Shown piece after piece: positions 3,586 through 59,448 of a stretch of DNA of 64,000 bases. The first letter of the stretch is position 1. Each line of letters opens with the position of its first letter. Under the pieces are notes generated by a model, which ran no database searches, had not been told where the DNA came from, and worked only from the letters and a program-made list of their open reading frames with translations. This stretch comes from an uncultured delta proteobacterium (GTDB taxonomy: Bacteria; Desulfobacterota; RBG-13-43-22). Made by a program: the position numbers and the translations under genes. Location of the stretch: positions 44,563 to 108,562 of the forward strand of contig CAWGEQ010000048.1 of assembly GCA_963821645.1 (NCBI GenBank). Direction: 5' to 3'.

Positions 3586-4881
3586 GTGGAGTTCATCAAA
3601 CCCGAAAGACTGACGGATTTAGCCGAGGAGAGGAAAGAGGCCCTGCTCAAGAGGTCTATGGAAGACATCTCGGATATTTATGAAGAGACCCGGTCCATTG
3701 TCCATGACATCCAGAAATCAGGGGAGCGGATTATTTTAGAACATTATCGAAAATATAAATCCGATATTCGGCCAAAGGACATCCTGGTCCAGCCCCAAGA
3801 AGTTCAGGCGGCCTATAAACAGGTTGATAAGGCCGTCCAGCAGGCCTTGAAACAAGCGGCCAAAAATATCGAAAAGTTCCATCGAGCCCAATTAGAAAGG
3901 GAGATGTGGGCCATTGAGGTCAGACCGGGGATCTTAGCCGGGAGGGTCAGAAGGTCCATGGAAATCATCGGGGCCTATGTTCCCGGAGGCAAGGCGAATT
4001 ACCCCTCAAGCGTACTTATGAACATTATCCCTGCCCGGGTAGCCGGGGTATCGACCGTTGTGGCCTGCACGCCGCCACAGAAAGGGATGAAGGCCGACCC
4101 GGTCACGATCGTGGCTGCAGATATTGCCGGGGCTGATTATCTATTCAAGGTGGGCGGGCCTTGGGCCATCGCCGGAATGGCCTATGGCACCAAATCCATG
4201 CCCAAGGTGGATAAGATTGTCGGCCCGGGTAATAAATATGTAACCGCGGCCAAGATGGCCGTCTTTGGGATGGTGGATATTGACTCTCCGGCCGGCCCGA
4301 GTGAGGCCCTCATTGTGGCCGACGATACCGCCAGGCCGGAGTGGATGATCTGGGATTTTCTTTCCCAAATCGAACATGATCCGGATGCCGGGGCTGTTTT
4401 GGTGACCCCCTCTCAAAAATTGGCCGAGAAGGTCTGTGAAATGATTAATCGGGAGTTGCCTGGACTGGAAAGGCGGGAAATTATTCAGGCGGCCTTGACA
4501 CGTCATTCCGCGGTCCTGGTTACTTCTACTCTCAAGGAAGCGATCGATTTTGCCAACGCCTATGCTGCCGAACATTTACAGATTGTTACCGAGGACCCCT
4601 GGATCATCCTGCCCATGATAAACCATGCCGGTTCTATTTTCATGGGTCCCTACGCACCGGTTCCGGCGGGCGATTATGCCTCGGGGACCAATCACGTTTT
4701 GCCGACCGGTGGGTGTGCCAGGATGTTTTCCGGTCTCTCAGTGGATGATTTTATCAAAAAGCCGACCTTTCAATACCTAAGCCGGAATGGATTACAGGGT
4801 CTAAAGAAGACGATCACCCTGTTGGCTAAAAAGGAAGGCCTGCCACTTCATGCCCGGGCGATCGAAGAGAGGTTTAAATAA
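3586..4881 (+). CDS. hisD: histidinol dehydrogenase
   Basis: 431-aa ORF with a GTG start behind AAAGGAG. HisD-like motifs include [22 protein letters not shown] and [13 protein letters not shown]. Confidence 0.9.
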
Positions 4882-4887
4882 TAAGAC

Positions 4888-4964
4888 AGGTATAAGGTAT
4901 AAGGTTATAGGTTTTAGGTTCAAGGGAAAGACCGTATACCGTAAACCTTACACCTTAGACCTTG
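4888..4964. repeat. 7-nt-periodic inverted repeat: (AAGGTWY)n arm and (RWACCTT)n arm forming an imperfect long hairpin
   Basis: Left arm is aggtataaggtataaggttataggttttaggttcaagg. Right arm is accgtataccgtaaaccttacaccttagaccttg. It sits between convergent hisD and iorB and belongs to the same family as 32368-32443, 59380-59448 and 62575-62649. Confidence 0.6.
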
Positions 4965-5554
4965 TTTTTATCGGCCGCCTCAAAGCCCAGGTCAAAGGCC
5001 TTCAGATTGATGGCCCATAACTTTTGCTTCAGGTTCATCTTGAGGGTCTCTTTGATTTGATCGGCCGTGACGGGAACGGTATTGCTTTGGACCAAGGCCC
5101 CAAGCATGACCACATTGACGGCCATGGCCGATCCGGCCTCTTCGGCCAGGGCGTCGGCATTCAAGGCGATCAATCGCTTGACCTTCTTTTGAATCAGACC
5201 CAGGGCCTCTTTGATATTCGGATAGACCCCCTTGCCTACGGCTACGGTAAAGGGCATCAAGGGGGTGACATTGGTTATCACCGTCGTCTCATTGGAACAT
5301 TTCCCCATGGCCCGCAAGGTCTCGGAGGGTTCAAAGCCGATCAAAACATCGGCCTCCCCATCGGAAACGATGGAGCTCAAGGCCCCGCCTAAGACCACGG
5401 CCGATTCGACCACACCGCCCCGCTGGGCCATGCCATGAACCTCGCTGACGTTGACCGGAATCCCGGCTAATAAGGCGGCTTCTCCTAAGACTCGGGAGGA
5501 GAGCAGGTTCCCCTGTCCTCCAACTCCGACAAAAACAATCCGTTTGATATCCAT
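4955..5554 (-). CDS. iorB: indolepyruvate:ferredoxin oxidoreductase subunit beta
   Basis: 199 aa with N-terminal VGVGGQGNLL...HGMAQRGG, typical of the IorB/gamma-type 2-oxoacid oxidoreductase domain. It lies directly downstream of iorA. Confidence 0.85.
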   Translation of the reverse strand: MDIKRIVFVGVGGQGNLLSSRVLGEAALLAGIPVNVSEVHGMAQRGGVVESAVVLGGALSSIVSDGEADVLIGFEPSETLRAMGKCSNETTVITNVTPLMPFTVAVGKGVYPNIKEALGLIQKKVKRLIALNADALAEEAGSAMAVNVVMLGALVQSNTVPVTADQIKETLKMNLKQKLWAINLKAFDLGFEAADKNKV

Positions 5555-5566
5555 AAGGCCCTCCTG

Positions 5567-7414
5567 TTATTTCCTGGGCAGAATAGCGTGTTCCGGGCAG
5601 ACCTGAGCGCAGACCGCACAGCCGATGCACTGGTTTTCGTTGATTTGAACCCGGCCATCTTCGACAAAAAAGGCCGGACAGGCAAATAAATTGACACAGT
5701 CCCGATGGTCCTTGCACCGGCTTTGGTTGATCATAAAGGTGCGTGACTTGGTCGAAGGGGCCACTTTTTTGGCGTACAGGGGGCAGATCTCTTTGGAGAT
5801 GATCACCGAAACCCCATCGTAGTCCAAGGCTTTTTGGACGGCCTCCATGGTCTCCTTAACTTTCCGGGGAGCGACGACGGAGATCTGTTTGACCCCGATC
5901 CCTCGTACCACCTCCTCGATGGAGATTCGGGTATTGGGTTGTCCCAAAAGGGCCATATCCACGCCGGGGTGGGGCTGATGCCCGGTCATGGCCGTGGTTT
6001 CATTGTCCAGGATGACCAGGGTAAACCGATGGTTGTTGTGTACGGCGTTGACCAGACCGGTGATACCGGAATGGAAAAAGGTGGAATCGCCGATAAAGGC
6101 AATGACCCGCTTCCCCGTGGCCTTGGAAAATCCGGCAGCCGAACTGACACTGGAACCCATGCAGATCAGAAAATCGGCCATACTCAAGGGCGGGAGCATG
6201 CCCAGGGTATAACAACCGATGTCGGTAGGATAGATAGCCTCCTCGCCGGCTACTTTCTTGACCGCATAAAAGGTCGATCGATGGGGGCACCCGGGACAAA
6301 GATTGGGGGGCCGGCCGGGAAGGGGGGGAATATCGGAAAGATCTACCGCCTTTCGACCCTCATCGGGCAAACAAAAATACTGGGCGATGGAGGTGCGGAC
6401 ACGGGCAGGTTCGTATTCGAAGAGGCGGCTGAGCTTACCGATCCCTTTGCCCTTAATAGGAATGTTCCTTCCCATGGTCTGGGCCAGGGCCCGCAAGGCT
6501 TCCTCCATGATGGGCTCCAACTCCTCCACTACCAAAACCTGGTCGACCGTATTGAGGAATTTTTTGCCCATTTCTTCCGGGAAGGGATAAGAAAATCCGA
6601 CCTTCAAGACGGTAAAAGAATTTTTGACCTTCAGGTCTTCCAGGGCATCCTGTACGTAAGCAAAGCTGACCCCCTGGGTAACGATTCCCCGTTTTCCGGT
6701 TCCGATGATTTCGTTAAAAGGAGAACGGTTGGAGATTTGTAAGGCCTGATCGTATTTCTCTATGAGTTTTATATGCAGGTTTCTAGACACGGCCGGCACC
6801 GTGACATAACTGAAGGGATCTTTTTTAAAAAACCCCTGGGTCTGCCTGGGTTTTATTTCGCCCAGGGTGACGACACCCCGAGAATGGTTGACGCGGGTTG
6901 TGGTCCTCAGCAGCACCGGTACTTTTAATTTTTCGGACAGGTCGAAGGCGGCCAGGGTCATGTCTTTGGCCTCTTGAGGCGTCGTCGGCTCCAGCATGGG
7001 CAGTCCGGAAATCCGGGCGTAGTAACGGTTGTCCTGCTCATTTTGACTGGAAAAGAGAGAGGGGTCATCGGCCGTCAGGATGACCATGCCCCCGATTACC
7101 CCGGTATAGGCTAAGGTCATCAGGGGATCGGCGGCCACATTTAGTCCCACATGCTTCATGGTAACCATGGTCCGCAAACCGGAAACCGCCGCCCCGGCGG
7201 CAACTTCCAGGGCGACCTTCTCATTGGTCGAGTATTCAAAATAGAGGTCCGATTCCTGGTTGATTTGATAGAAATTTAAAGCCACTTCCGAGGAGGGGGT
7301 TCCCGGATAAGCAGTCGCAAAAGCCAATCCGGCTTCAATGGCCCCTCGGGCAATGGCCTCGTTACCCAACAACAACATCTTTTCTCCGGATTTTCCTTTT
7401 AATAATTCATGCAT
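5567..7414 (-). CDS. iorA: indolepyruvate:ferredoxin oxidoreductase subunit alpha
   Basis: 615 aa with a TPP-binding region (GDSTFFHSG) and a C-terminal 2x[4Fe-4S] cluster (CxxCxxCxxxCP: CIGCAVCAQVCPEHAI). Confidence 0.9.
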   Translation of the reverse strand: MHELLKGKSGEKMLLLGNEAIARGAIEAGLAFATAYPGTPSSEVALNFYQINQESDLYFEYSTNEKVALEVAAGAAVSGLRTMVTMKHVGLNVAADPLMTLAYTGVIGGMVILTADDPSLFSSQNEQDNRYYARISGLPMLEPTTPQEAKDMTLAAFDLSEKLKVPVLLRTTTRVNHSRGVVTLGEIKPRQTQGFFKKDPFSYVTVPAVSRNLHIKLIEKYDQALQISNRSPFNEIIGTGKRGIVTQGVSFAYVQDALEDLKVKNSFTVLKVGFSYPFPEEMGKKFLNTVDQVLVVEELEPIMEEALRALAQTMGRNIPIKGKGIGKLSRLFEYEPARVRTSIAQYFCLPDEGRKAVDLSDIPPLPGRPPNLCPGCPHRSTFYAVKKVAGEEAIYPTDIGCYTLGMLPPLSMADFLICMGSSVSSAAGFSKATGKRVIAFIGDSTFFHSGITGLVNAVHNNHRFTLVILDNETTAMTGHQPHPGVDMALLGQPNTRISIEEVVRGIGVKQISVVAPRKVKETMEAVQKALDYDGVSVIISKEICPLYAKKVAPSTKSRTFMINQSRCKDHRDCVNLFACPAFFVEDGRVQINENQCIGCAVCAQVCPEHAILPRK

Positions 7415-10441: not shown

Positions 10442-12030
10442 ATGGTCGGACAAAAGATAAAAGCCAGCAAACAAGTCGGCCTAAAGGATTTTCGGTCCAA
10501 GTCCGGGCGGATTAATGAATATGTCCTGATCTGTTTCAGCGCTCTCTTAGTCGTTCTTTCTTTTCCCAAATTCTCCTGGTCCATTTTGGCCTGGGGTTCC
10601 CTGGTTCCATTCTTTAAATCCCTTGAAGATAAACCGGCCCGAACAAGATTTCGGCTGGGATATCTATTCGGCATTGTTTATAACCTGGGGATTTTTTATT
10701 GGGTAACCCACTCCATGCGCTATTACGGCGGCTTGGACCCCTTTACCAGTTATTTTGTCCTGCTGCTTATGGTCCTTTATTTGGCCCTTTATACCGGGGC
10801 CTTTGGTTGGCTTTGGGGGTTATTCCCCACGAAGGGTCTTTTCCCTCTCATTTGGGTCCCCTCGACCTGGGTCGGCCTGGAATTCCTGCGGGCCCACCTA
10901 TTAACCGGATTTCCCTGGGAATTATTCGGCTATTCCCAATATAACTGTCTGCCGATAATCCAGATGGCCGAGATAACCGGGGTCTTGGGGGTCTCCTTTT
11001 TAATCATCTTAGTCAACCAAAGTTTATACCAGCTTTTTTTGACCGACCGCCCTTATGAAAAGAGGTCCCGGAAATGGAAATTGGCGGCTTTCCCCCTTTG
11101 TTTAATCATCTTAGTCCTTATTTTCGGCTTCAATGCTTTATATCAACAAAGGCAAAAAGATCGACAGGCCCCGTCTTTAAAAGTAGCCCTTATTCAGGGG
11201 AATATCGACCAATCCTTAAAATGGGACCCGACCTTTCAAGAAAAGACCATTGACCTTTATGAGAACCTGACCCTTAAAACAAGTTCTTCCGCCGCCGATT
11301 TGGTTGTCTGGCCGGAAACAGCGGTTCCTTTTTTTTCTTGAGTGAAAATCGTTTGTCCCCCAGATTATTTCAGTTGACCCGGAGAACCGGGGCCTCTCTT
11401 TTATTCGGGAGCCCGGCGGTTAATTATCCAGGAGGACAACCCCAATTTTATAATCGGGCCTATCTGCTGAGCCCCGAAGGCCGGATAAGTTTCTACGATA
11501 AGGTCCATCTGGTTCCCTTTGGAGAATATATTCCCTTAAAGAAGCTCTTACCCTTTGTGGGGAAAATAGTCCAAGCCATAGGTGATTTCAGCCCTGGGCC
11601 GGGAAGCTATGGGTTGGACCATCCAAAAGGGAAAATAGGTGTTCTGATCTGCTTTGAAACCATTTTCCCGGAATTATCCCGGGCCTATAAACAAGAAGGG
11701 TGTCGGCTTCTGGTCAACATGACCAATGACGCCTGGTTTGGGAAGACCTCGGCTCCTTACCAACACCTGTCCATGCTTACCTTTCGGGCCGTCGAAAACC
11801 GGCTCTGGATCGCCCGAGCCGCCAATACGGGTTTTAGCGCTGTTATTGATTCTACCGGGCGGATCACCAAGCGATTTCCGCTGTTTCAAACCGGGGGGAT
11901 TTATGCTACTATTCCCTTAAGGGAAGGAAAGACTTTTTATTCCCGCCACGGCGACCTGCTGATCATTTTTTGCGGCCTGGTTTTCCTCTCGGGAATTATT
12001 ATTGGGATAGTAAAGAAAAAAGGGGATTAA
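10442..12030 (+). CDS. lnt: apolipoprotein N-acyltransferase, interrupted by a frameshift in a T8 run (11329-11336)
   Basis: ORF 10442..11341 carries the multi-TM N-domain and the start of the CN-hydrolase domain (VALIQGNI...VVWPETAVPFF). ORF 11338..12030 continues the CN-hydrolase domain in another frame (ICFETIFPE...AANTGFSAVID). Confidence 0.8.
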
Positions 12031-16508: not shown

Positions 16509-17478
16509 TCAAATTTCTCCTTTTGTTTCTTTTAACAGGCCCTCCAGGGGTATTTCAGCCCTGGCGGCACCCTTGTGCCCACCGGCGGAGGCCCCCCATC
16601 GTTCGAAGAGTCGCTGGGCCGTTTTTCCGGCATCCCCGCGAAAGCTGGCCTTTCTCAGGATAACGATCAGCTTGTCCTGGTTTATTCCCGAAACAACGCT
16701 CCAGGTCGATTCGGCAATCCGGAGAAAAAAATCGGCCAGGATCACCAGAACGTCTGGATTTTCCACCTCACCCATATGGGCGAAGGCGATTTTTTTTAAA
16801 AAGATCAACTTATCCAGGCCGATTTTGAAATAGGCCAGCATCTTCTTGTTCAGTTCGGAGGACTCGATTTTTTTGATAATATTCATATTGGCGTACTGAT
16901 AAAGATACCTGAAGGCGCTGACATCGTTGTACACCGAATCCCTGACGAAACTATCGGTATCGGTCTTGATGCCGTAGAACAGGGCCGTGGCCAGCATCTC
17001 AGAGGGCTTGATCCTGGCCGCCCTTGAGGTACTCGGTCATGATCGTTGAGTTGGCCCCGTAATCCTCCCTGATATCAAGGAAGCGGGCCTTGGACGTCGT
17101 TTCAACCGGGTGATGATCGATGATGATGTCGAAATTCAGGTCTTTGAACTGCTCATCATGGCTTGGTTGAGAATCGACCAGGGCCCATTTGGTGATAAGG
17201 GCAGGGTTCATATGCCGGATATGCTGCTGCTTAATCTTGAGGAGCTTGACGAAAGCCAGGTTATCGGCCCGCTGAATGGGATTGACGTGATAAATCGAAA
17301 TCTTTTTTACCTTTCGCCACAGCAGTCTCTTTAAGGCAACGGCGCTGGCCATGGAATCAGGGTCGGCCTTGATCAAAATCGCCAGGGTATCCTCCTGATC
17401 CACCATCTCGAAAAGCCGGTGGCACTTCCCGGTGGAGGGCGGGGATTTCGGCAAGGGATGTTCTTTAGCGTTGCTCAT
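16509..17478 (-). CDS. DHH/DHHA1 phosphoesterase (NrnA-like), frameshifted near 17015-17027
   Basis: N-part carries the DHH motif (IIIDHHP). C-part carries GIKTDTDSF and the DHHA1 motif GGHKGAARAE. Shifting one base at CTCAAGGGCGGCC restores ...TEYLK-AARIKPSEMLATAL. Confidence 0.75.
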
Positions 17479-17880
17479 GCTGGTTTTCTCTCCAGGCCCG
17501 GAAGACGGCCTTCCGCTCGGTAAGTACCGCTCTTCAAGTTATGGGAATTAGGTCCTTCTTCTAAATTTTTAATCAGTTCACTTGAATCCTTGAACCCTTG
17601 AATCCTCGAATCCTTTAATCGTCGCCAACTTTTGGCGATGATTAAAAATTATAAGATAAGATGACGATAGAGACAAGGAAAAAGGCTTTAATCTCGGGTA
17701 TATTGTAGGAATCAAGGTGTATTTATTGAAATAAGTGAACTGAAAAAAATTAAAATAAATGTTGTAAAAATCTATTAACCGTTTAATAATCATCGATAAT
17801 CATTTAACCAAGATAGACCATCCTTGGATTTCTGTCAGAAAAAACGGACAAATTTTTTGGTTTATGGCCTGATAAGCTTC

Positions 17881-18008
17881 ATGGGGCGCCGTTTCCCACC
17901 CGGTTGTCCCGCCGCGCAAACGCGGCAGAACAGCGCTGTTGCACCTGACGTCCCCGCGTCCAAATAAATTTGTCTCCGGTTCCGCAGGTGAACCGGCGCC
18001 CATTAGAT
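17881..18008 (+). repeat. long imperfect palindrome ending in ATTAGAT; proposed left boundary of the cassette array
   Basis: ATGGGGCGCCG (17881-17891) pairs with CCGGCGCCCAT (17993-18003). TTAGAT (18003-18008) is the exact complement of ATCTAA (18956-18961) at the end of the mrr cassette. Confidence 0.4.
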
Positions 18009-18027
18009 GCAAAAAGGAGATTGATAC

Positions 18028-18961
18028 ATGGCCATTCCAGATTATCAGAGCGTGATGTTGCCACTTCTCAGATTTTCCGCGGAAAAAAAAGACGAGACCT
18101 CCACAGGGGAGGCCGTTGAAGTCCTTCAAAAGAATTTGGCCTGACAGATGAAGATCTAAAAGAGCTACTTCCAAGCGGTATTTCAATCTACCTTTGTCAA
18201 TAGAGTTGGTTGGGCGTCTACTTACATGAAGAAAGCCGGTCTACTTGAAGCTACACGGAGAGGCTACTTTCGAATCACATCGCGCGGTCAAGAACTACTC
18301 AGGAAGCAGCCAAAAGCTATCAATATAAAACTTCTCAAACAGTATCCTGAGTTCCTTGAGTTCCAACAACTCAAAGGAACACGAAGTGGTGAGAAAGATA
18401 AGCGCCTCAGGAGGAACACCTGACATTTTAGCAGCTACTCCGTCTGAGGCATTGGAAAACGCCTATGAAAATCTACGTAATGAACTTGCTAACGAACTAC
18501 TCGCCAAAGCTTAAAAAATCTTCGCCATCCTTTTTCGAACGTGCTGTTGTCGAGTTGCTCGTGAAGATGGGTTATGGAGGCTCACGCTCCGACGCAGGAA
18601 AAGCCATTGGGAAAAGCGGAGATGGCGGCATTGATGGAATAATAAAAGAAGACAGACTTGGACTCGATGTCGTCTACATTCAAGCAAAACGATGGGACAA
18701 CTAATCCTGTTGGAAGGCCAGATGTTATGCAGTTTGCGGGAGCGCTACAAGTTGCAGAAAGCAAACAAAGGCATATTCATTACGACTTCCAGATTTACCG
18801 ACGATGCGAGAAGCTTTGTTTCACAAATTGGAAGCAAAATTGTCTTAATCGATGGGGAACAACTCACCAATTTAATGATTGAGAGTGATGTTGGCGTATC
18901 GGTTGTATCGATGTATCCGGTGAAGAAAATAGATGCTGATTATTTTGATGAAAGCATCTAA
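18028..18961 (+). pseudogene. mrr: Mrr-family restriction endonuclease, decayed (at least 5 frame disruptions)
   Basis: Mrr_N motifs MAIPDYQSVMLPLL, GLTDEDLKELLPSG and FVNRVGWASTYMKKAGLLE, plus Mrr_cat motifs FERAVVELLVKMGYGGS, GKSGDGGIDGIIKEDRLGLD, YIQAKRW, VGRPDVMQFAGAL, KGIFITTSRFT and VLIDGEQLTNLMI. These are spread over three reading frames. AAGGAGA Shine-Dalgarno sequence at 18014-18020. Confidence 0.8.
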
Positions 18962-19019
18962 CAAGCGGCTCCACCGGATCGCCGAAAAATCCGGCTTCCG
19001 GTGAGCTCTAACGGTGGCG
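18956..19019 (+). repeat. attC-like module A, copy 1
   Basis: ATCTAAC (fits RYYYAAC and contains the mrr stop codon), AAGCG, GCTCCAC, a 25-nt centre, GGTGAGC, TCTAAC, then GGTGGCG (a degenerate R', GGT instead of GTT). Confidence 0.45.
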
Positions 19020-19182
19020 CCGCCTGCGGCGTCGCCAATGCGGCGTTGACCCTATCTGGTTCATGTCCCGTTCGGCTTCGCCTACGGCTGCGCCAACCAG
19101 GCCATTGGACCTCGATGTCCCTCGCTCGCATGGGCCTTCGGCCCCCGCAAGCTTCGGGACACGGGTCAACGCCGCATTATGT
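19020..19182 (+). repeat. module B, copy 1: ~160-bp GC-rich long imperfect palindrome
   Basis: AATGCGGCGTTGACCC (19038-19053) pairs with GGGTCAACGCCGCATT (19163-19178). The apical 62 nt (19092-19153) are identical to 20465-20526. The module ends in ATTATGT. Confidence 0.55.
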
Positions 19183-19194
19183 AAGGAAAGAGAC

Positions 19195-19725
19195 ATGGCC
19201 ATATCCGATCGTATACTGGAGTGTATCAACAAATACAATGCCAATGATCTCGATAACGCTCTTATTCAAGTCTGTATTGCCATGGATGGAACGGCAAAGA
19301 AAGAGTATCCGAAAATAAAAAAAGTCGGTGAGAGGTTCAGGACGTTCATCAAGTCCAATCAAGACATAATCACCTTCTTTACGTTCAACACGAATATCTT
19401 CATCAACTGCCAGTTCGGAGAGTACACAATCGAGCAGTTTATATACAAAGTCCTTCGCTGCGGGTTGCTGCATGAAGGAGACATCCCCGAGATGTTCGAG
19501 TTTGCGGAAACGGGTGGTCCCATCGAAATCGGCGATAGAAAATGGCGTCTCCCGAAGACCTTCGTGTTTGGCGCAATGCTTGCCGTGATTGGCGCTCATT
19601 CCAATTCGGGGGAGAATTTGCCGGAAGACCTGACCGTCACCATTATGGGGCAGCAGTTTACCGTAAACCAGTTGTGGGGTCGTGCAGACATTATCAGAAC
19701 GACATTAGAGCCAAGGGCTGCATAA
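19195..19725 (+). CDS. hypothetical protein (177 aa), cassette-borne
   Basis: ATG 19195 follows AAGGAAAG. The 44 upstream codons of track ORF 19063..19725 lie inside repeat module B and were rejected. No motif was recognised. Confidence 0.6.
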   Translation: MAISDRILECINKYNANDLDNALIQVCIAMDGTAKKEYPKIKKVGERFRTFIKSNQDIITFFTFNTNIFINCQFGEYTIEQFIYKVLRCGLLHEGDIPEMFEFAETGGPIEIGDRKWRLPKTFVFGAMLAVIGAHSNSGENLPEDLTVTIMGQQFTVNQLWGRADIIRTTLEPRAA

Positions 19726-19782
19726 CCGCATGAACCGGATCATGTCCCTGGCGGGCCACTCCTGGATATGCATGCGTTGTAC
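19720..19782 (+). repeat. attC-like site (63 bp) after the 177-aa ORF
   Basis: GCATAAC (contains the stop TAA), then CGCATG..AACCGGA // TCCTGGAT..CATGCG, then GTTGTAC. The sequence is unrelated to module A but has the same architecture. Confidence 0.4.
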
Positions 19783-19828
19783 ATAAAAATCAATTGACTT
19801 ATAACCACATTGTATTTACACTGTATTT

Positions 19829-20137
19829 ATGTCTGAGATTCGCTTTGAATGGGATGAAAAGAAGCATTCTCTAAATATGAGAAAGCATGGAGTTTCTTTC
19901 AACGAAGGACAGACGGTGTTTGCTGATGAAAACGGTTTGTTACTTGACGATCCAGACCATTCTTAGGAGGAAAACCGCTTTATCCTTCTCGGACTAAGTT
20001 CCAGCCTACGCCTCATAGTCGTTTCCCATACCTATCGAAAGAATGATGCTGTTATAAGAATCATCTCGGCCCGTAAGGCGACTAACTCGGAACAAAAACA
20101 ATATGGAGAAGATGGTAACCATGAGAAAAGAATATGA
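19829..20137 (+). pseudogene. brnT: BrnT-family (DUF497) toxin with an in-frame TAG at 19964-19966
   Basis: The translation MSEIRFEWDEKKHSLNMRKHGVSFNEGQTVFADENGLLLDDPDHS*EENRFILLGLSSSLRLIVVSHTYRKNDAVIRIISARKAT parallels the intact paralog at 20613..20885. Confidence 0.75.
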
Positions 20138-20339
20138 TTTTTCCAAAGCCAAGAAAAATCCTTATGCGAACATGCTGAAGAAACATGTCTCCATAAGGTT
20201 AGATGAAGAAACCATCAAGTATTTCAAGGAGCTTGCAATGGGGGCCGGGATCCCCTACCAAACCCTGATAAACCTTTATTTACGGGATTGTGCGTCATCG
20301 GGTCGGAAGCTTTCTATTCAATGGAAAGAAGCTTCCTAA
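20103..20339 (+). CDS. brnA: BrnA-family antitoxin (RHH/CopG-like)
   Basis: KEYDFSKAKKNPYA...VSIRLDEETIKYFKELAMGAGIPYQTLINLYLRDCA. It overlaps the 3' end of the brnT pseudogene. An alternative start is ATG 20121. Confidence 0.8.
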   Translation: MEKMVTMRKEYDFSKAKKNPYANMLKKHVSIRLDEETIKYFKELAMGAGIPYQTLINLYLRDCASSGRKLSIQWKEAS

Positions 20340-20346
20340 AATATTT

Positions 20347-20411
20347 GCCCAACAAGACGTTCCACCGGATCGCCCGAAAACCGGGCTTCCCGGTGAACTC
20401 TTTCGTTGGCG
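20347..20411 (+). repeat. attC-like module A, copy 2 (best-preserved)
   Basis: R'' GCCCAAC (20347-20353), AAGAC, L'' GTTCCAC, atcgcccgaaaaccgggcttc-containing centre, L' GGTGAAC, TCTTTC, R' GTTGGCG (20405-20411). L'' carries one extra C relative to L'. Confidence 0.5.
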
Positions 20412-20556
20412 CCGCCTGCGGCGTTGCCCCTGTCGGGTCCATGTCCCGGCTGGCTCGCCCGGCTGCCAACCAGGCCATTGGACCTCGATGTCCCTCGCTC
20501 GCATGGGCCTTCGGCCCCCGCAAGCTGCGGGCCACGGGTCAACGCTGGATGCGGAG
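20412..20556 (+). repeat. module B, copy 2
   Basis: It shares the start ccgcctgcggcgt and the identical 62-nt core (20465-20526) with copy 1. The flanking stem arms have diverged. Confidence 0.55.
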
Positions 20557-20576
20557 ATCAGGTGATTACAAAACTC

Positions 20577-20605
20577 TTAGCATGATTCCAAGAACATGAT
20601 ATAAT
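20577..20605 (+). promoter_or_regulatory. candidate promoter of the second brnTA pair (near-leaderless)
   Basis: TTAGCA (20577-20582), a 17-nt spacer, then a perfect TATAAT (20600-20605). The brnT ATG at 20613 lies only 7 nt downstream. Confidence 0.4.
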
Positions 20606-20612
20606 CTGAAAT

Positions 20613-20885
20613 ATGAAAATCGAATGGGACCGGAAGAAGGCAAAAATCAACATTAGGAAGCATGAAGTCTCTTTTGAGGAAGCGGCCACCGCATTGAGTG
20701 ACCCTATGGCCGCAACCGGTCCCGATCCCGATCATTCAATTTCTGAAGAACGTTATATTACCTTTGGTGTATCAGAAAAAGGTCGGCTGCTGGTGGTATC
20801 TCACACTGAAGAAGGCGAAAACATTAGAATTATAAACGCTCGCAAAGCGAGCAAAGGAGAACGGGAACTTTATGAAGAAGGATAA
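20613..20885 (+). CDS. brnT: BrnT-family (DUF497) ribonuclease toxin
   Basis: MKIEWDRKKAKINIRKHEVSFEEA...DPDHSISEERYITFGVSEKGRLLVVSHTEEGENIRIINARKA. Confidence 0.85.
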   Translation: MKIEWDRKKAKINIRKHEVSFEEAATALSDPMAATGPDPDHSISEERYITFGVSEKGRLLVVSHTEEGENIRIINARKASKGERELYEEG

Positions 20886-21135
20886 AAAACCTGAAAAAGA
20901 CGAACTACGGCCGGAGTATAGGCGTTCAGATTTTCCCGGGGGCCTTGTACGGGGGAAATACACAAAACGTATAAAGGAATCATCAAATATCATCGTCCTT
21001 AAACCGGAAGTAGCCCGTGTATTTCCAAACGGAGATGCTGTTAACAAGGCTCTTCTTTCTCTGATCGACCTGGCCCGAAAAACAACACACCCAAGACGTT
21101 CCACCGGATCGCCCGAAAACCGGGCTTCCCGGTGA
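20872..21135 (+). CDS. putative cognate antitoxin; 3' end reads into the attC-like repeat
   Basis: It overlaps the brnT stop by 14 nt. It has the DELRPEY...VRGKYTKRIKESSNIIVLKPEVARVFPNGDAVNKAL pattern often seen next to DUF497 toxins. The last ~15 codons (HPRRSTGSPENRASR) are encoded by repeat module A. Confidence 0.6.
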   Translation: MKKDKKPEKDELRPEYRRSDFPGGLVRGKYTKRIKESSNIIVLKPEVARVFPNGDAVNKALLSLIDLARKTTHPRRSTGSPENRASR

Positions 21136-21183
21136 ACTCTTTCGTTGGCGCCGCCTGCGGCGTCGCCGATGCGGCAGTTAGAA
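21088..21183 (+). repeat. attC-like module A copy 3 plus a truncated module B, ending in GTTAGAA
   Basis: It is identical to copy 2 from gacgttccaccgg through gttggcgccgcctgcggcgt. The 5' R'' region carries a 3-nt deletion. Module B is cut to ~35 nt. Confidence 0.5.
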
Positions 21184-21322
21184 CAAATGATGAAAAGCAA
21201 GGCAGGGGAGGGCGTATAGCTCGAAACCGCGCTGGAATCGACGAGGGGTTAAGGGGGCTTAAGGGAGGGGGGAGATTCCCTGCGCCTGGTGCAGGGAGCT
21301 TTAAATAGTTATAAAAAATTAT

Positions 21323-25270: not shown

Positions 25271-26551
25271 ATGAAAAGAACGGCCTTATTGACAGTTGTT
25301 TTTTGTTTAGTGGCATTCTTAACGGCCTCGATGGTCCTGGCCCAGGCCAAGGCTCCGGCCAAAAAGGCCGCCGAAGCGGCCATAAAAACCGGGGCCAAAG
25401 ATGCCATCCGTTTGGGGGCCATCTGGGACTTTGCCGGACCCTGTTACATGCTTTCCGAGTCGGCCGTCCAGGGTATGCGGATCGCCGTGGAAGAGATCAA
25501 TGCCAAGGGGGGCGTCCTGGGTAGAAAATTCGACCTGATCGTCCGGGATACGGAGATGAAGGTCGATGTGGGGGCCAGGGAAACCAAGGACCTGATCCTG
25601 CGTGAGAAAGTCAATTTCCTGGTCGGGCCATGCAGCAGCGGGGTGGCCTTGGCGGTTCAGGTGGTTCATGCCGAGAATAAAATTTTGCGGGTCACCTGTA
25701 TGGCTAATACCGAGGCTCAGGTGGTCGATAAATTCACCCCTTACGTGGTCCAAGTAGTTCCCAATACCTACATGGAGGCCGTGGCCGCCACCCAGTTCCT
25801 GCATAAGAAATATCCCCAGGCCAAAAAATTCTGTACCATTGCCCCGGATTATGAATACGGCCGCCGGGAAGAAGCCGCCTTTGAGGAAGAAATTAAAAAA
25901 CTGGTGCCCGATGCCGAAATCCTTTATCAGGCCTGGCCCAAGCCCGGGGAAAAAGATTTAACTTCTTTCATCACCGCCATTATGGCCAAGAAGCCCGATG
26001 CCGTCCACAGTTCCTTTTTCGGTGGAGACTTAGTGGCCTTTACCAAACAGGCCGCCCCTTACGGCTTTTTTGAAAAGATCCCCTTTATCGCCCTCTATGA
26101 CCTGCCGGTCTTTATCGCCCTGGGGGCCGATGCCCCGGAAGGGGTTATGGCTTTCGGTCGGGGGTGTTTCTTCATGGACCCCAATCCCAAGATGATGCAA
26201 TTCGTCGAGAAATATCGAAAGGCCCGCGGCGCCTATCCGGATTCCTGGGCGGTCATGGCCTATGATTCGGTTTATCTGATCAAGGCCGCCGTGGAAAAGG
26301 CCAAATCGGTCGATACCGATAAGGTCATCAAGGCCATGGAAGGGATGACCCTGGACAGTTTACGGGGCAAATTTTTCATCCGGCCTTTGGACCATATGGG
26401 CAGTGTACCCTGCTATCAGGGGATCATCGCCAAGGACCCCAGATATCCATTCAAAATTTGGAAGGATATCGTGCGGGTCCCTGGAGATAAGGTCTGGCGG
26501 TCCGAAGCCGGTGTGCGGGAAATCTGGAAAAAGACGGGGGTGGTCCGATAA
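25271..26551 (+). CDS. ABC transporter substrate-binding protein (LivK / Peripla_BP_6 type)
   Basis: Signal peptide (MKRTALLTVVFCLVAFLTASMVLAQA) and a type-I periplasmic-binding fold length of 426 aa. It heads the Liv-type permease/ATPase genes. Confidence 0.85.
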   Translation: MKRTALLTVVFCLVAFLTASMVLAQAKAPAKKAAEAAIKTGAKDAIRLGAIWDFAGPCYMLSESAVQGMRIAVEEINAKGGVLGRKFDLIVRDTEMKVDVGARETKDLILREKVNFLVGPCSSGVALAVQVVHAENKILRVTCMANTEAQVVDKFTPYVVQVVPNTYMEAVAATQFLHKKYPQAKKFCTIAPDYEYGRREEAAFEEEIKKLVPDAEILYQAWPKPGEKDLTSFITAIMAKKPDAVHSSFFGGDLVAFTKQAAPYGFFEKIPFIALYDLPVFIALGADAPEGVMAFGRGCFFMDPNPKMMQFVEKYRKARGAYPDSWAVMAYDSVYLIKAAVEKAKSVDTDKVIKAMEGMTLDSLRGKFFIRPLDHMGSVPCYQGIIAKDPRYPFKIWKDIVRVPGDKVWRSEAGVREIWKKTGVVR

Positions 26552-32335: not shown

Positions 32336-32367
32336 TGGATTTATCCTTATTGTTAGCAAAAAGGTTC

Positions 32368-32443
32368 AAGGTATAAGGTTCAAGGTACAAGTCAAAAATA
32401 AAAGGTTTAAACCGTATACCGTGTACCTTGCACCTTATACCTT
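32368..32443. repeat. AAGGTAT-family hairpin (21/22-bp stem) between the hydro-lyase alpha and beta genes
   Basis: AAGGTATAAGGTTCAAGGTACA (32368-32389) pairs with TGTACCTTGCACCTTATACCTT (32422-32443). The right-arm 20-mer TACCTTGCACCTTATACCTT is identical to 59429-59448. Confidence 0.7.
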
Positions 32444-59356: not shown

Positions 59357-59379
59357 ATATATAAACTCCGTTTTGGTTT

Positions 59380-59448
59380 AAGGTATAAGGTGCAAGGTAT
59401 ACGGTATATGGGTTTTCCTTTTACCTTGTACCTTGCACCTTATACCTT
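59380..59448. repeat. AAGGTAT-family hairpin (perfect 20-bp stem) between nuoN and the NuoE/F-like gene
   Basis: AAGGTATAAGGTGCAAGGTA (59380-59399) pairs with TACCTTGCACCTTATACCTT (59429-59448). Confidence 0.75.

Follow-up and report, generated by a model that had tools for sequence, protein, structure and literature searches.

What occupies the 3.3 kb between the gene of a DHH-family phosphoesterase and the cold-shock gene csp in the chromosome of an uncultured delta proteobacterium? The insert spans positions 17863 to 21186 of a 64,000-nucleotide stretch of contig CAWGEQ010000048.1 (assembly GCA_963821645.1), which was analysed as a whole and is here called the window, and an earlier note made from the letters alone had described it as an integron-like array of gene cassettes devoid of an integrase. 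The present analysis makes it highly probable that the insert is a chromosomal integron gene-cassette array without an integrase in the window, i.e., a CALIN, the term of IntegronFinder for clustered attC sites that have no integron integrase (Cury et al. 2016, PMC4889954), a reading supported by attC models, by the own-end signature of the cassette boundaries, by polymorphism among strains and by the link of the site family with an integrase. As proposed here, the array would open with a short leader ending in an attC, followed by an mrr cassette (pseudogene), an ORF-less cassette and a cassette with a 176-aa ORF, and would close with a brnT(pseudo)-brnA cassette, the ORF-less cassette once more, a brnT-antitoxin cassette and the stub of a third ORF-less unit. 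The HisD protein of the window has its best named relative in a Desulfobacca sp. metagenome-assembled genome (MAG), with 88% identity, and the host was therefore taken as a Desulfobacca-like member of the Thermodesulfobacteriota.

The attC sites were called with two proxy covariance models, R1 and R2, and not with the attc_4 model of IntegronFinder itself. R1 was built only from 18 different attCs cut from class 1 integrons on PLSDB plasmids and was run unfiltered on both strands of the window (a search space of 128 kb), and R2 was trained on 27 sites from JGI metagenomes, none of them from the window lineage. With the rough E-values available, R1 ranked first the site at 20347-20410 (A2; 21.7 bits, E 0.003) and second that at 18956-19019 (A1; 12.1 bits, E 0.79), followed by a third match in a conserved coding region (E 0.96). 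A weak recurrent match at 25382-25435 on the minus strand (11.8 bits, E about 1), within a periplasmic-binding-protein gene and conserved in the related contigs L123 and L124, was treated as a false positive and indicates the background rate of R1. R2 revealed exactly three matches in the window, at 20347 (42.8 bits, E 2.7e-9), 18956 (39 bits, E 3.2e-8) and 21089 (A3; 22.6 bits, E 1.2e-3), and its next-best match had an E of 0.56. Significance under an attC model had been set beforehand as one test of the array, and the proxies gave significant scores, R1 at A2 and R2 at all three sites. The three model-supported sites span 2.2 kb on one strand.

The 18 class 1 attCs follow one block plan, R''(7)+5+L''(3+bulge+5) ... 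L'(8)+6+R'(7), and A1 and A2 match it exactly. Like class 1 attCs (59-base elements, e.g., those of cmlA5, ereA2 and aadA7), the A sites have this spacing and an extrahelical base at L'' position 4; the R'' box of A2 (GCCCAAC) recurs in the cmlA5 attC, and its L boxes, TCCACCGG / CCGGTGA, recur in that of ereA2. In contrast to class 1 attCs, the window sites are without homology outside the boxes, reside in another host phylum and accompany no resistance genes. On folding, the A sites form hairpins in which the L'' side, the 5' arm, has one extra base (z = -3.4 to -4.7; -3.4 and -4.7 for A1), in agreement with the unpaired L'' base noticed in the letters, and the L-box pair that is C:G in A1 and T:A in A2 is a compensatory change. 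The sites also bear lesions: in A1 the GTT of R' is mutated to GGT, the site being otherwise canonical, and A3 lacks 3 nt at the R''/spacer junction.

The boxes quoted in the earlier note were all recovered, namely ATTAGAT at 18002, ATCTAAC at 18956, GGTGGCG at 19013, ATTATGT at 19176, GCATAAC at 19720, GTTGTAC at 19776, GCCCAAC at 20347 and GTTGGCG at 20405 and 21144, as were the two TAA stops inside R''-like boxes, the last mrr fragment ORF ending at 18961 and the 176-aa ORF at 19725. The claim that each unit is followed by an attC-like palindrome held for the A sites, which fold and are supported by the models, but not for 19720-19782, where no significant structure was found (z 0 and -0.9) and neither attC model gave a match; its centre resembles an intact site in contig L155 (oriented 2260-2326, 16.6 bits). 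Upstream of mrr, 17925-18008 (site 0) was missed by both models and is tentatively assigned to a third attC class: its L stem folds with a single bulge, with a z of only -1.4, its crossover would be A↓TT between 18002 and 18003 (the arrow marks the cut here and below), and a homologue ending in GGCGCCCA↓TT lies directly upstream of a B-type attC in the JGI locus L140. Two repeat modules, A and B, recur in the insert (Table 1), and no copy of either was found in the remaining ~60 kb of the window. Rfam gave nothing at gathering thresholds in the window and only chance-level matches in 17.5-21.5 kb, and no T-run terminators were found.

At the cassette boundaries, the signature expected of circular cassettes is highly significant. 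Units that move as circles cut at G↓TT must begin with six bases complementary to the R'' box at their own 3' end. In the window, the start TTAGAT of the mrr unit matches its own R'' (ATCTAA) at 6/6 positions, TTATGT of the 176-aa ORF unit matches GCATAA at 5/6, and TTGTAC of the brnT'-brnA unit matches GCCCAA at 4/6. Similarly, in L123 the start TTGGGG of a kinase unit matches CGCCAA at 5/6 and TTCGAA of a dapF unit matches TTCGAA at 6/6, and the B unit, starting with TTGGCG, matches its own R'', TGCCAA or CGCCAA, at 5-6/6. Over the four variable positions per unit, the window lineage (units of the window and of L123) gives 19/24 matches to the own R'', a value reached by 3/720 permutations, and the in-situ pairing of each R'' with the following unit gives 7/24. 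In the JGI loci described below, all neighbouring site pairs were compared after the correction of two local-alignment offsets: 12/19 pairs were perfect at the four variable positions and 60/76 positions matched, and among 200,000 permutations (mean 28.2, maximum 51) none reached 60. The complementarity of cassette starts with the R'' at their own end, which the earlier note had pointed out, was thus verified in both sets. The complementarity of the start TTxxxx to the own-end xxxxAA(C) would result from a movement of the cassettes as integrase-cut circles.

Related loci were retrieved by exact-protein look-up of the flanking cold-shock protein, which gave four contigs, and of BrnT, which gave one more, their flanks being 90-94% identical to the window. 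The left flank ends in ...TTTTTTGG↓TT between 17860 and 17861; the relative L122 has GG↓TT at this junction as in the window and the sequences diverge thereafter, suggesting that the junction was an attG-like insertion point. Homology with L122 stops at window position 17862 and resumes at 21313, and with L123 and L125 it resumes at 21187-21188. The array of the window recurs in L001 and L124 (96-98% identity). At the same place, L122 has hicB-hicA' and an IS3 element, with other genes filling about 7 kb, and L123 has an IS91 transposase and a tyrosine recombinase, a complete B, a gene for a protein kinase, B's 3' half, dapF and, at the dapF end, an A-type site (R1, 19.6 bits, E 0.01). Since the relatives differ between conserved flanks, the insert is strain-variable, and the invariance of the locus that would have spoken against a cassette array was not observed. 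In L123, the cold-shock gene beside the insert is tandemly duplicated (5142-5716).

It could be argued that the repeats are ordinary intergenic palindromes (REP/BIME- or MITE-like elements, or transcription insulators) that spread alone, the genes between them forming an unrelated islet. In fact, A and B are GC-rich palindromes between genes, B has a MITE-like perfect 16-nt terminal inverted repeat, and B occurs at several loci of one metagenomic bin (Ga0154639 contigs 113, 115 and 120), some of them without a detected A-type site nearby. However, a model trained on clinical attCs only (R1) finds the repeats, the unit boundaries follow the cassette rule to a degree unreached by any permutation, and an integron-integrase remnant adjoins the array in contig L151. 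Moreover, the repeats are strictly co-oriented with the ORFs and with each other: R1 gave 32 matches on the 39 B-carrying JGI loci, 32/32 on the same strand as B. Together with the absence of repeat copies elsewhere in the 64 kb and of T-run terminators, this leaves the explanation by ordinary palindromes largely refuted and very unlikely, and the scattering of the repeats in non-cassette contexts, named as a further ground for doubt, did not appear. In the window, every ORF and every site of the insert lies on the plus strand, and the units are co-oriented as had been stated. The stretch had also been called AT-richer, and its GC content is indeed below that of the whole window (0.481 vs 0.520), but the signal is weak, the 10 kb to its left having 0.489.

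The search for an integrase returned negative results in the window. Pfam scans of 30 of the 36 ORFs of at least 230 aa and of three shorter ORFs beside the island revealed no tyrosine recombinase (the six ORFs left out lie at or overlap assigned sites, or fall in the sensor-kinase/efflux-pump region), and a six-frame tblastn of the window with IntI1, the L123 recombinase and the L151 fragment had a best E of 4, in accordance with the absence of intI noted before. An integrase remnant was met in L151, where tblastn with IntI1 revealed, beside an array and divergent from it, the 130-aa C-terminal half of an integron integrase. This fragment scores 165 bits with TIGR02249 vs 82 with XerC and aligns to VchIntIA residues 196-309, integron-specific segment included, the N-terminal 200 residues being missing. 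In L148 and L165, 46 aa of this integrase persist as a remnant next to B. The A/B site family thus appears to be associated with an integron integrase, as judged from a relative in which the integrase gene is truncated. At 1563-2262 of L151, this truncated integrase abuts an opposite-strand GGDEF-domain gene fragment that replaces the integrase N-terminus and the expected attI.

A complete integron, with intI, attI and a Pc promoter adjoining the first cassette, was not found at the locus, the left neighbour being the DHH-family gene and its conserved upstream region; an attI, however, is not recognizable from its letters. The array might nevertheless be the far end of a complete sedentary chromosomal integron, with intI and attI just outside the examined DNA, considering that an array of the same family adjoins the intI remnant in L151 and that the 64-kb window is the only part of the genome searched. 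Against it, conserved chromosome bounds the insert, with the DHH gene up to 17862 and the csp region from 21187; because the flanks are conserved on both sides, the array is only 3.3 kb long, and no recombinase gene or fragment was found within 17.8 kb to its left or 42.8 kb to its right, which makes such a sedentary integron hardly credible.

Another recombinase was considered and rejected as the missing integron integrase. The L123 recombinase lacks about 34 residues relative to VchIntIA 173-241, aligns without gaps to XerA, falls short of the TIGR02249 cutoff of 265 with its 157 bits, and is part of an IS91-type unit. Such units, composed of an IS91-family transposase and an upstream Xer-like recombinase (92% identical), lie in or beside attC arrays in L123 (308-2282, minus strand) and L165 (oriented, 3764-4453), each preceded by an attC-like hairpin starting with CTTGAAC (19.5 bits in L165), and could be insertion sequences that target or carry attC sites. 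Delivery of the islet by a system of this kind, with the palindromes as its sites, is highly improbable, for although the transposase and the Xer-like recombinase lie directly beside such hairpins in both contigs, the L123 recombinase has no integron-specific insertion, neither the window nor L001, L122 or L124 carries the recombinase, the cassette rule is of integron type, as is the R'/R'' consensus, and IS91 elements use rolling-circle transposition and make no arrays of single-gene units.

The attC limits had been left at either 65 bp or ~210-230 bp, i.e., with or without B; the shorter extent was upheld and the longer one was not, module B belonging to a separate cassette, here called X+B. 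A metagenome scan with three short B anchors led to the 39 JGI loci. An earlier metagenome scan with a strict A+X pattern gave 0 matches, as did the viral contig scans; a genome-contig scan with CCACCGG...CCGGTGA...TGGCGCC gave, among the matches listed, only chance or coding ones, mostly a TPP-enzyme motif, and the six-frame translation of A2+B2 as a protein query (spurious ORFs over the repeats) found no match. In most JGI loci, the X+B unit starts exactly at G↓TTGGCGCC, behind many unrelated A-like site ends, and its start (T)TGGCG complements its own R'' CGCCAA. In several loci, only the 3' ~92 nt of B are present behind unrelated sequence, and there the first four R'' bases vary (GGATAAC, AGACAAC, ACATAAC); the 3' part of B was therefore taken as an attC class of its own. 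Its plan comprises R'' CGCCAAC, a 7-nt spacer, L'' TTG-G-AC, a hairpin of ~50 nt, L' GTCAA, a 6-nt spacer and R' ATTRRRY. The end of B is always GGGTCAACGCCGC[A/G]↓TT (GCCGC[A/G]↓TT); the next four bases vary and are mostly RRRY-like. Among 46 B copies, those of the window and L123 included, the base before TT was A in 37 and G in 7. Because cassettes located after B-type sites also conform to the own-end rule, the crossover in B was placed at [A/G]↓TT. A hand-drawn B structure had 83% of its cells paired vs 20-42% in slid controls, and two central-hairpin columns covary clearly. In the second window copy, R' is mutated, with GCTGGATG in place of GCCGCATT. Two other views of B, that it is part of a 220-bp attC and that it is a MITE, were rejected, since the unit starts with G↓TTGGCG behind unrelated sites, the attC between Pkinase and dapF in L123 consists of no more than the 3' half of B, and later cassettes obey the own-end rule.

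Like ORF-less cassettes already described (PMC6557892; bioRxiv 10.1101/2023.11.21.568050; review PMC8876359), X+B has no ORF, ends in its own attC, precedes ORF cassettes and has a start, TTGGCG, complementary to its own R'' CGCCAAC. Unlike them, it is very short, its attC taking up ~92 of about 165 nt, is highly repeated, occurring in most of the 39 contigs and in as many as two copies per contig, and carries a perfect 16-bp inverted repeat between the 5' body and the 3' attC arm. A second conserved chromosomal junction, ...AATTGAAAAGAAACTATTCAATATATTG↓TTGGCGCC, was observed in L154, L171, L172 and L169 (oriented), about 70-330 nt upstream of B; in these four related contigs it is followed by the same ORF-less B cassette and then by different cassettes, and it has the look of a further hot spot or of an attI-like site, no integrase lying within 3-7 kb. 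Tentatively, and with the odds rather against it, X+B may be a self-propagating cassette with an attC cut at A↓TT, in place of the near-universal G↓TT, that spread behind many attCs in the lineage and opens arrays at no fewer than two chromosomal hot spots. If so, an X+B cut at A↓TT would point to a cognate integrase whose core-site specificity is relaxed or shifted, and the unit would possibly have a regulatory role as promoter or RNA. The ATT core found in the B-type attC seems unusual, as does the abundance of a single ORF-less cassette of very small size.

Regarding the cargo (Table 1), the first cassette carries the decayed mrr announced before, its Mrr_N and Mrr_cat fragments lying in different frames. 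It is 91.7% identical to that of the strain L001, with seven single-base indels; a long-read assembly artefact is an unlikely cause, since the same two assemblies agree at 100% in the 176-aa ORF, the intact brnT (20613-20885), A1 and A3, the neighbouring cassettes having no indels. The ORF of the second cassette, counted as 177 aa earlier, has 176 aa and found no match in the Pfam and NCBIfam scans. In the third cassette, the expected brnT pseudogene and brnA were both recognized by Pfam; the in-frame TAG at 19964-19966 occurs in the window only, and the L001 copy is intact, with 96 aa. Both domains of a BrnT/BrnA type II toxin-antitoxin system are thus present in adjacent overlapping genes. 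In the fourth cassette, the intact brnT of the proposed brnT-antitoxin pair stood (PF04365), but its 87-aa partner had no family match in the scans and is presumed to be the antitoxin by its position and overlap. Toxin-antitoxin and restriction genes had been called typical cassette cargo, which agrees with PMC8618304. In addition, a homologue of mrr (46-51% aa identity) was observed after a site-0-type attC and a B attC in L140 (oriented, 2532-2936), and one of brnT (71% over 34 aa) after a B attC in L152 (oriented, 181-285).

Table 1. Positions of the features of the cassette array (window coordinates)
Feature	Position	Strand	Evidence or remark
Insert start, short non-coding leader	17863..17924	+	L122 homology stops at 17862
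Site 0, attC-like, putative third class	17925..18008	+	R'' GCAGAAC, L'' GTT-G-CACC / L' GGTGAAC, R' ATTAGAT
mrr restriction-endonuclease pseudogene, cassette 1 (18003-19013)	18028..18961	+	Pfam Mrr_N and Mrr_cat fragments, different frames
attC A1	18956..19019	+	R'' ATCTAAC, spacer AAGCG, L'' GCT-C-CACCGG, L' CCGGTGAGC, spacer TCTAAC, R' GGTGGCG
Module A (~76 nt), three copies	18961-19036, 20353-20428, 21092-21167		
X+B unit copy 1, ORF-less cassette	19014..19176	+	Own attC 19091-19182, R'' CGCCAAC ... GGGTCAACGCCGC A↓TTATGT
Module B (~140 nt), two copies	19037-19178, 20417-20550		Perfect 16-nt terminal inverted repeat
176-aa ORF, cassette 2 (19177-19776)	19196..19725	+	Precomputed PF27329 Rv1289
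Degenerate attC	19720..19782	+	R'' GCATAAC ... R' GTTGTAC, L' arm mutated
Promoter-like site before brnT pseudogene	19794-19822		
brnT toxin pseudogene, first gene of cassette 3 (19777-20405)	19829..20119	+	BrnT_toxin on 45-aa fragment, E 1e-9
brnA antitoxin	20103..20339	+	PF14384 BrnA_antitoxin, E 1e-9
attC A2, fully canonical	20347..20411	+	R'' GCCCAAC, AAGAC, L'' GTT-C-CACCGG, centre, L' CCGGTGAAC, TCTTTC, R' GTTGGCG
X+B unit copy 2	20406..20550	+	Own attC 20464-20550; 13 nt shorter at 5' end
Promoter-like site upstream of intact brnT (TTAGCA-17-TATAAT with TG)	20577..20605	+	Consensus match only
brnT toxin, intact, cassette 4 (about 20551-21144)	20613..20885	+	PF04365, E 6e-27
87-aa ORF overlapping brnT, presumed antitoxin	20872..21135	+	3' end runs into attC A3
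attC A3	21089..21150	+	99% identical to A2, R' GTTGGCG
Stub of another X+B unit's 5' end (TTGGCGCCGCCTGCGGCGTCGCCGATGCGGCAGTTAGAACAA), then right junction	21145..21186	+	Alignment with B copies

Several observations weigh against an integron origin of the insert. The attC assignment rests on proxy models rather than on IntegronFinder, with E-values from a shortened calibration, and R1 gives A1 only the E of 0.79 quoted above and does not find A3, the site at 19720, site 0 or either B site. The L-box pairs of B are invariant and offer neither covariation support nor contradiction, and the B-type sites mostly end in ATT instead of the canonical GTT. The start of the brnT'-brnA unit agrees poorly with its R'' (2/4 variable positions), and cassette 4 gives no comparison. 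No attI, Pc promoter or integrase is demonstrable for the host genome. Finally, L122 carries at the locus 8.6 kb of ordinary-looking genes with no attC matches, and therefore not all variation at this place is cassette traffic. Every testable feature of a CALIN was nonetheless found at the locus.

As to the mechanism, each cassette would end in an attC that, when single-stranded, would take the form of a hairpin that has R and L boxes and one extrahelical base. An integron integrase whose gene lies elsewhere, in the past or at present, would cut [G/A]↓TT in the R' box, and the cassettes would be excised as circles and inserted at attI, attC or a genomic G↓TT site. The brnTA-type modules, with promoter-like sites of their own, would probably hold the array in place by addiction. 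The recombination itself, the integrase acting in trans and the stabilizing role of the toxin-antitoxin genes are inferred. The array appears largely frozen and eroding: a key box is damaged at 4/7 sites and two genes are dead.

Compared with known systems, the array resembles other CALINs in having at least two co-oriented attCs with less than 4 kb between them, in lacking an integrase within 4 kb, and in its short units of one or two genes, its chromosomal location and its cargo of toxin-antitoxin pairs, restriction genes and unknowns. It differs from them in that its sites are partly eroded, two units are copies of one ORF-less cassette and one site class ends in ATT. As in the Vibrio cholerae superintegron with its VCR repeats, there is a lineage-specific conserved attC class (B, 85-95% identical across contigs) next to diverse attCs, together with self-promoted toxin-antitoxin cassettes, duplicated cassettes and strain-variable content; in contrast to it, the array is tiny (about seven sites), has no adjacent intI, attI or Pc and belongs to a host of the Thermodesulfobacteriota and not of the Gammaproteobacteria. 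Integrons have already been reported in Desulfobacterota (PMC8618304), as have CALINs, toxin-antitoxin and restriction cassettes, ORF-less cassettes and insertion at genomic GWT sites (PMC4889954, PMC8618304, PMC8876359, bioRxiv 10.1101/2022.09.11.507474). The array is an element of known type, with no unusual cargo.

Outside the insert, the window is ordinary chromosome, with hisD, surE, prfB, lnt, a liv-type ABC transporter, a sigma-54 activator, an RND pump and nuo/mrp-like genes. The DHH/DHHA1 phosphoesterase gene (16509-17478, minus strand) and lnt (10442-12030, plus strand) are each split into two adjacent ORFs, and the split of the former is probably real and not an assembly error, because it also occurs in the independent assembly L122. 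Intergenic palindromes at 4889-4963, 32349-32443 and 59375-59448 (also 17581-17620), three copies ~27 kb apart, consist of heptamer runs (GGTWYAA)n followed by (TTRWACC)n, and an 8-nt tandem repeat run (CTTGAATC-like) lies upstream of the DHH gene; these palindromes and tandem repeats may represent a lineage-specific REP-like element.

The finding documents a further CALIN, in an anaerobic lineage of which few samples exist, the Desulfobacca-like Thermodesulfobacteriota, and indicates that an orphan cassette array is recognizable from raw sequence alone. Moreover, the resulting data set, with about 70 attC sites of three classes on 39 metagenome contigs plus five strain variants, can be used to study integrase core-site specificity outside Proteobacteria and the decay of orphan arrays.

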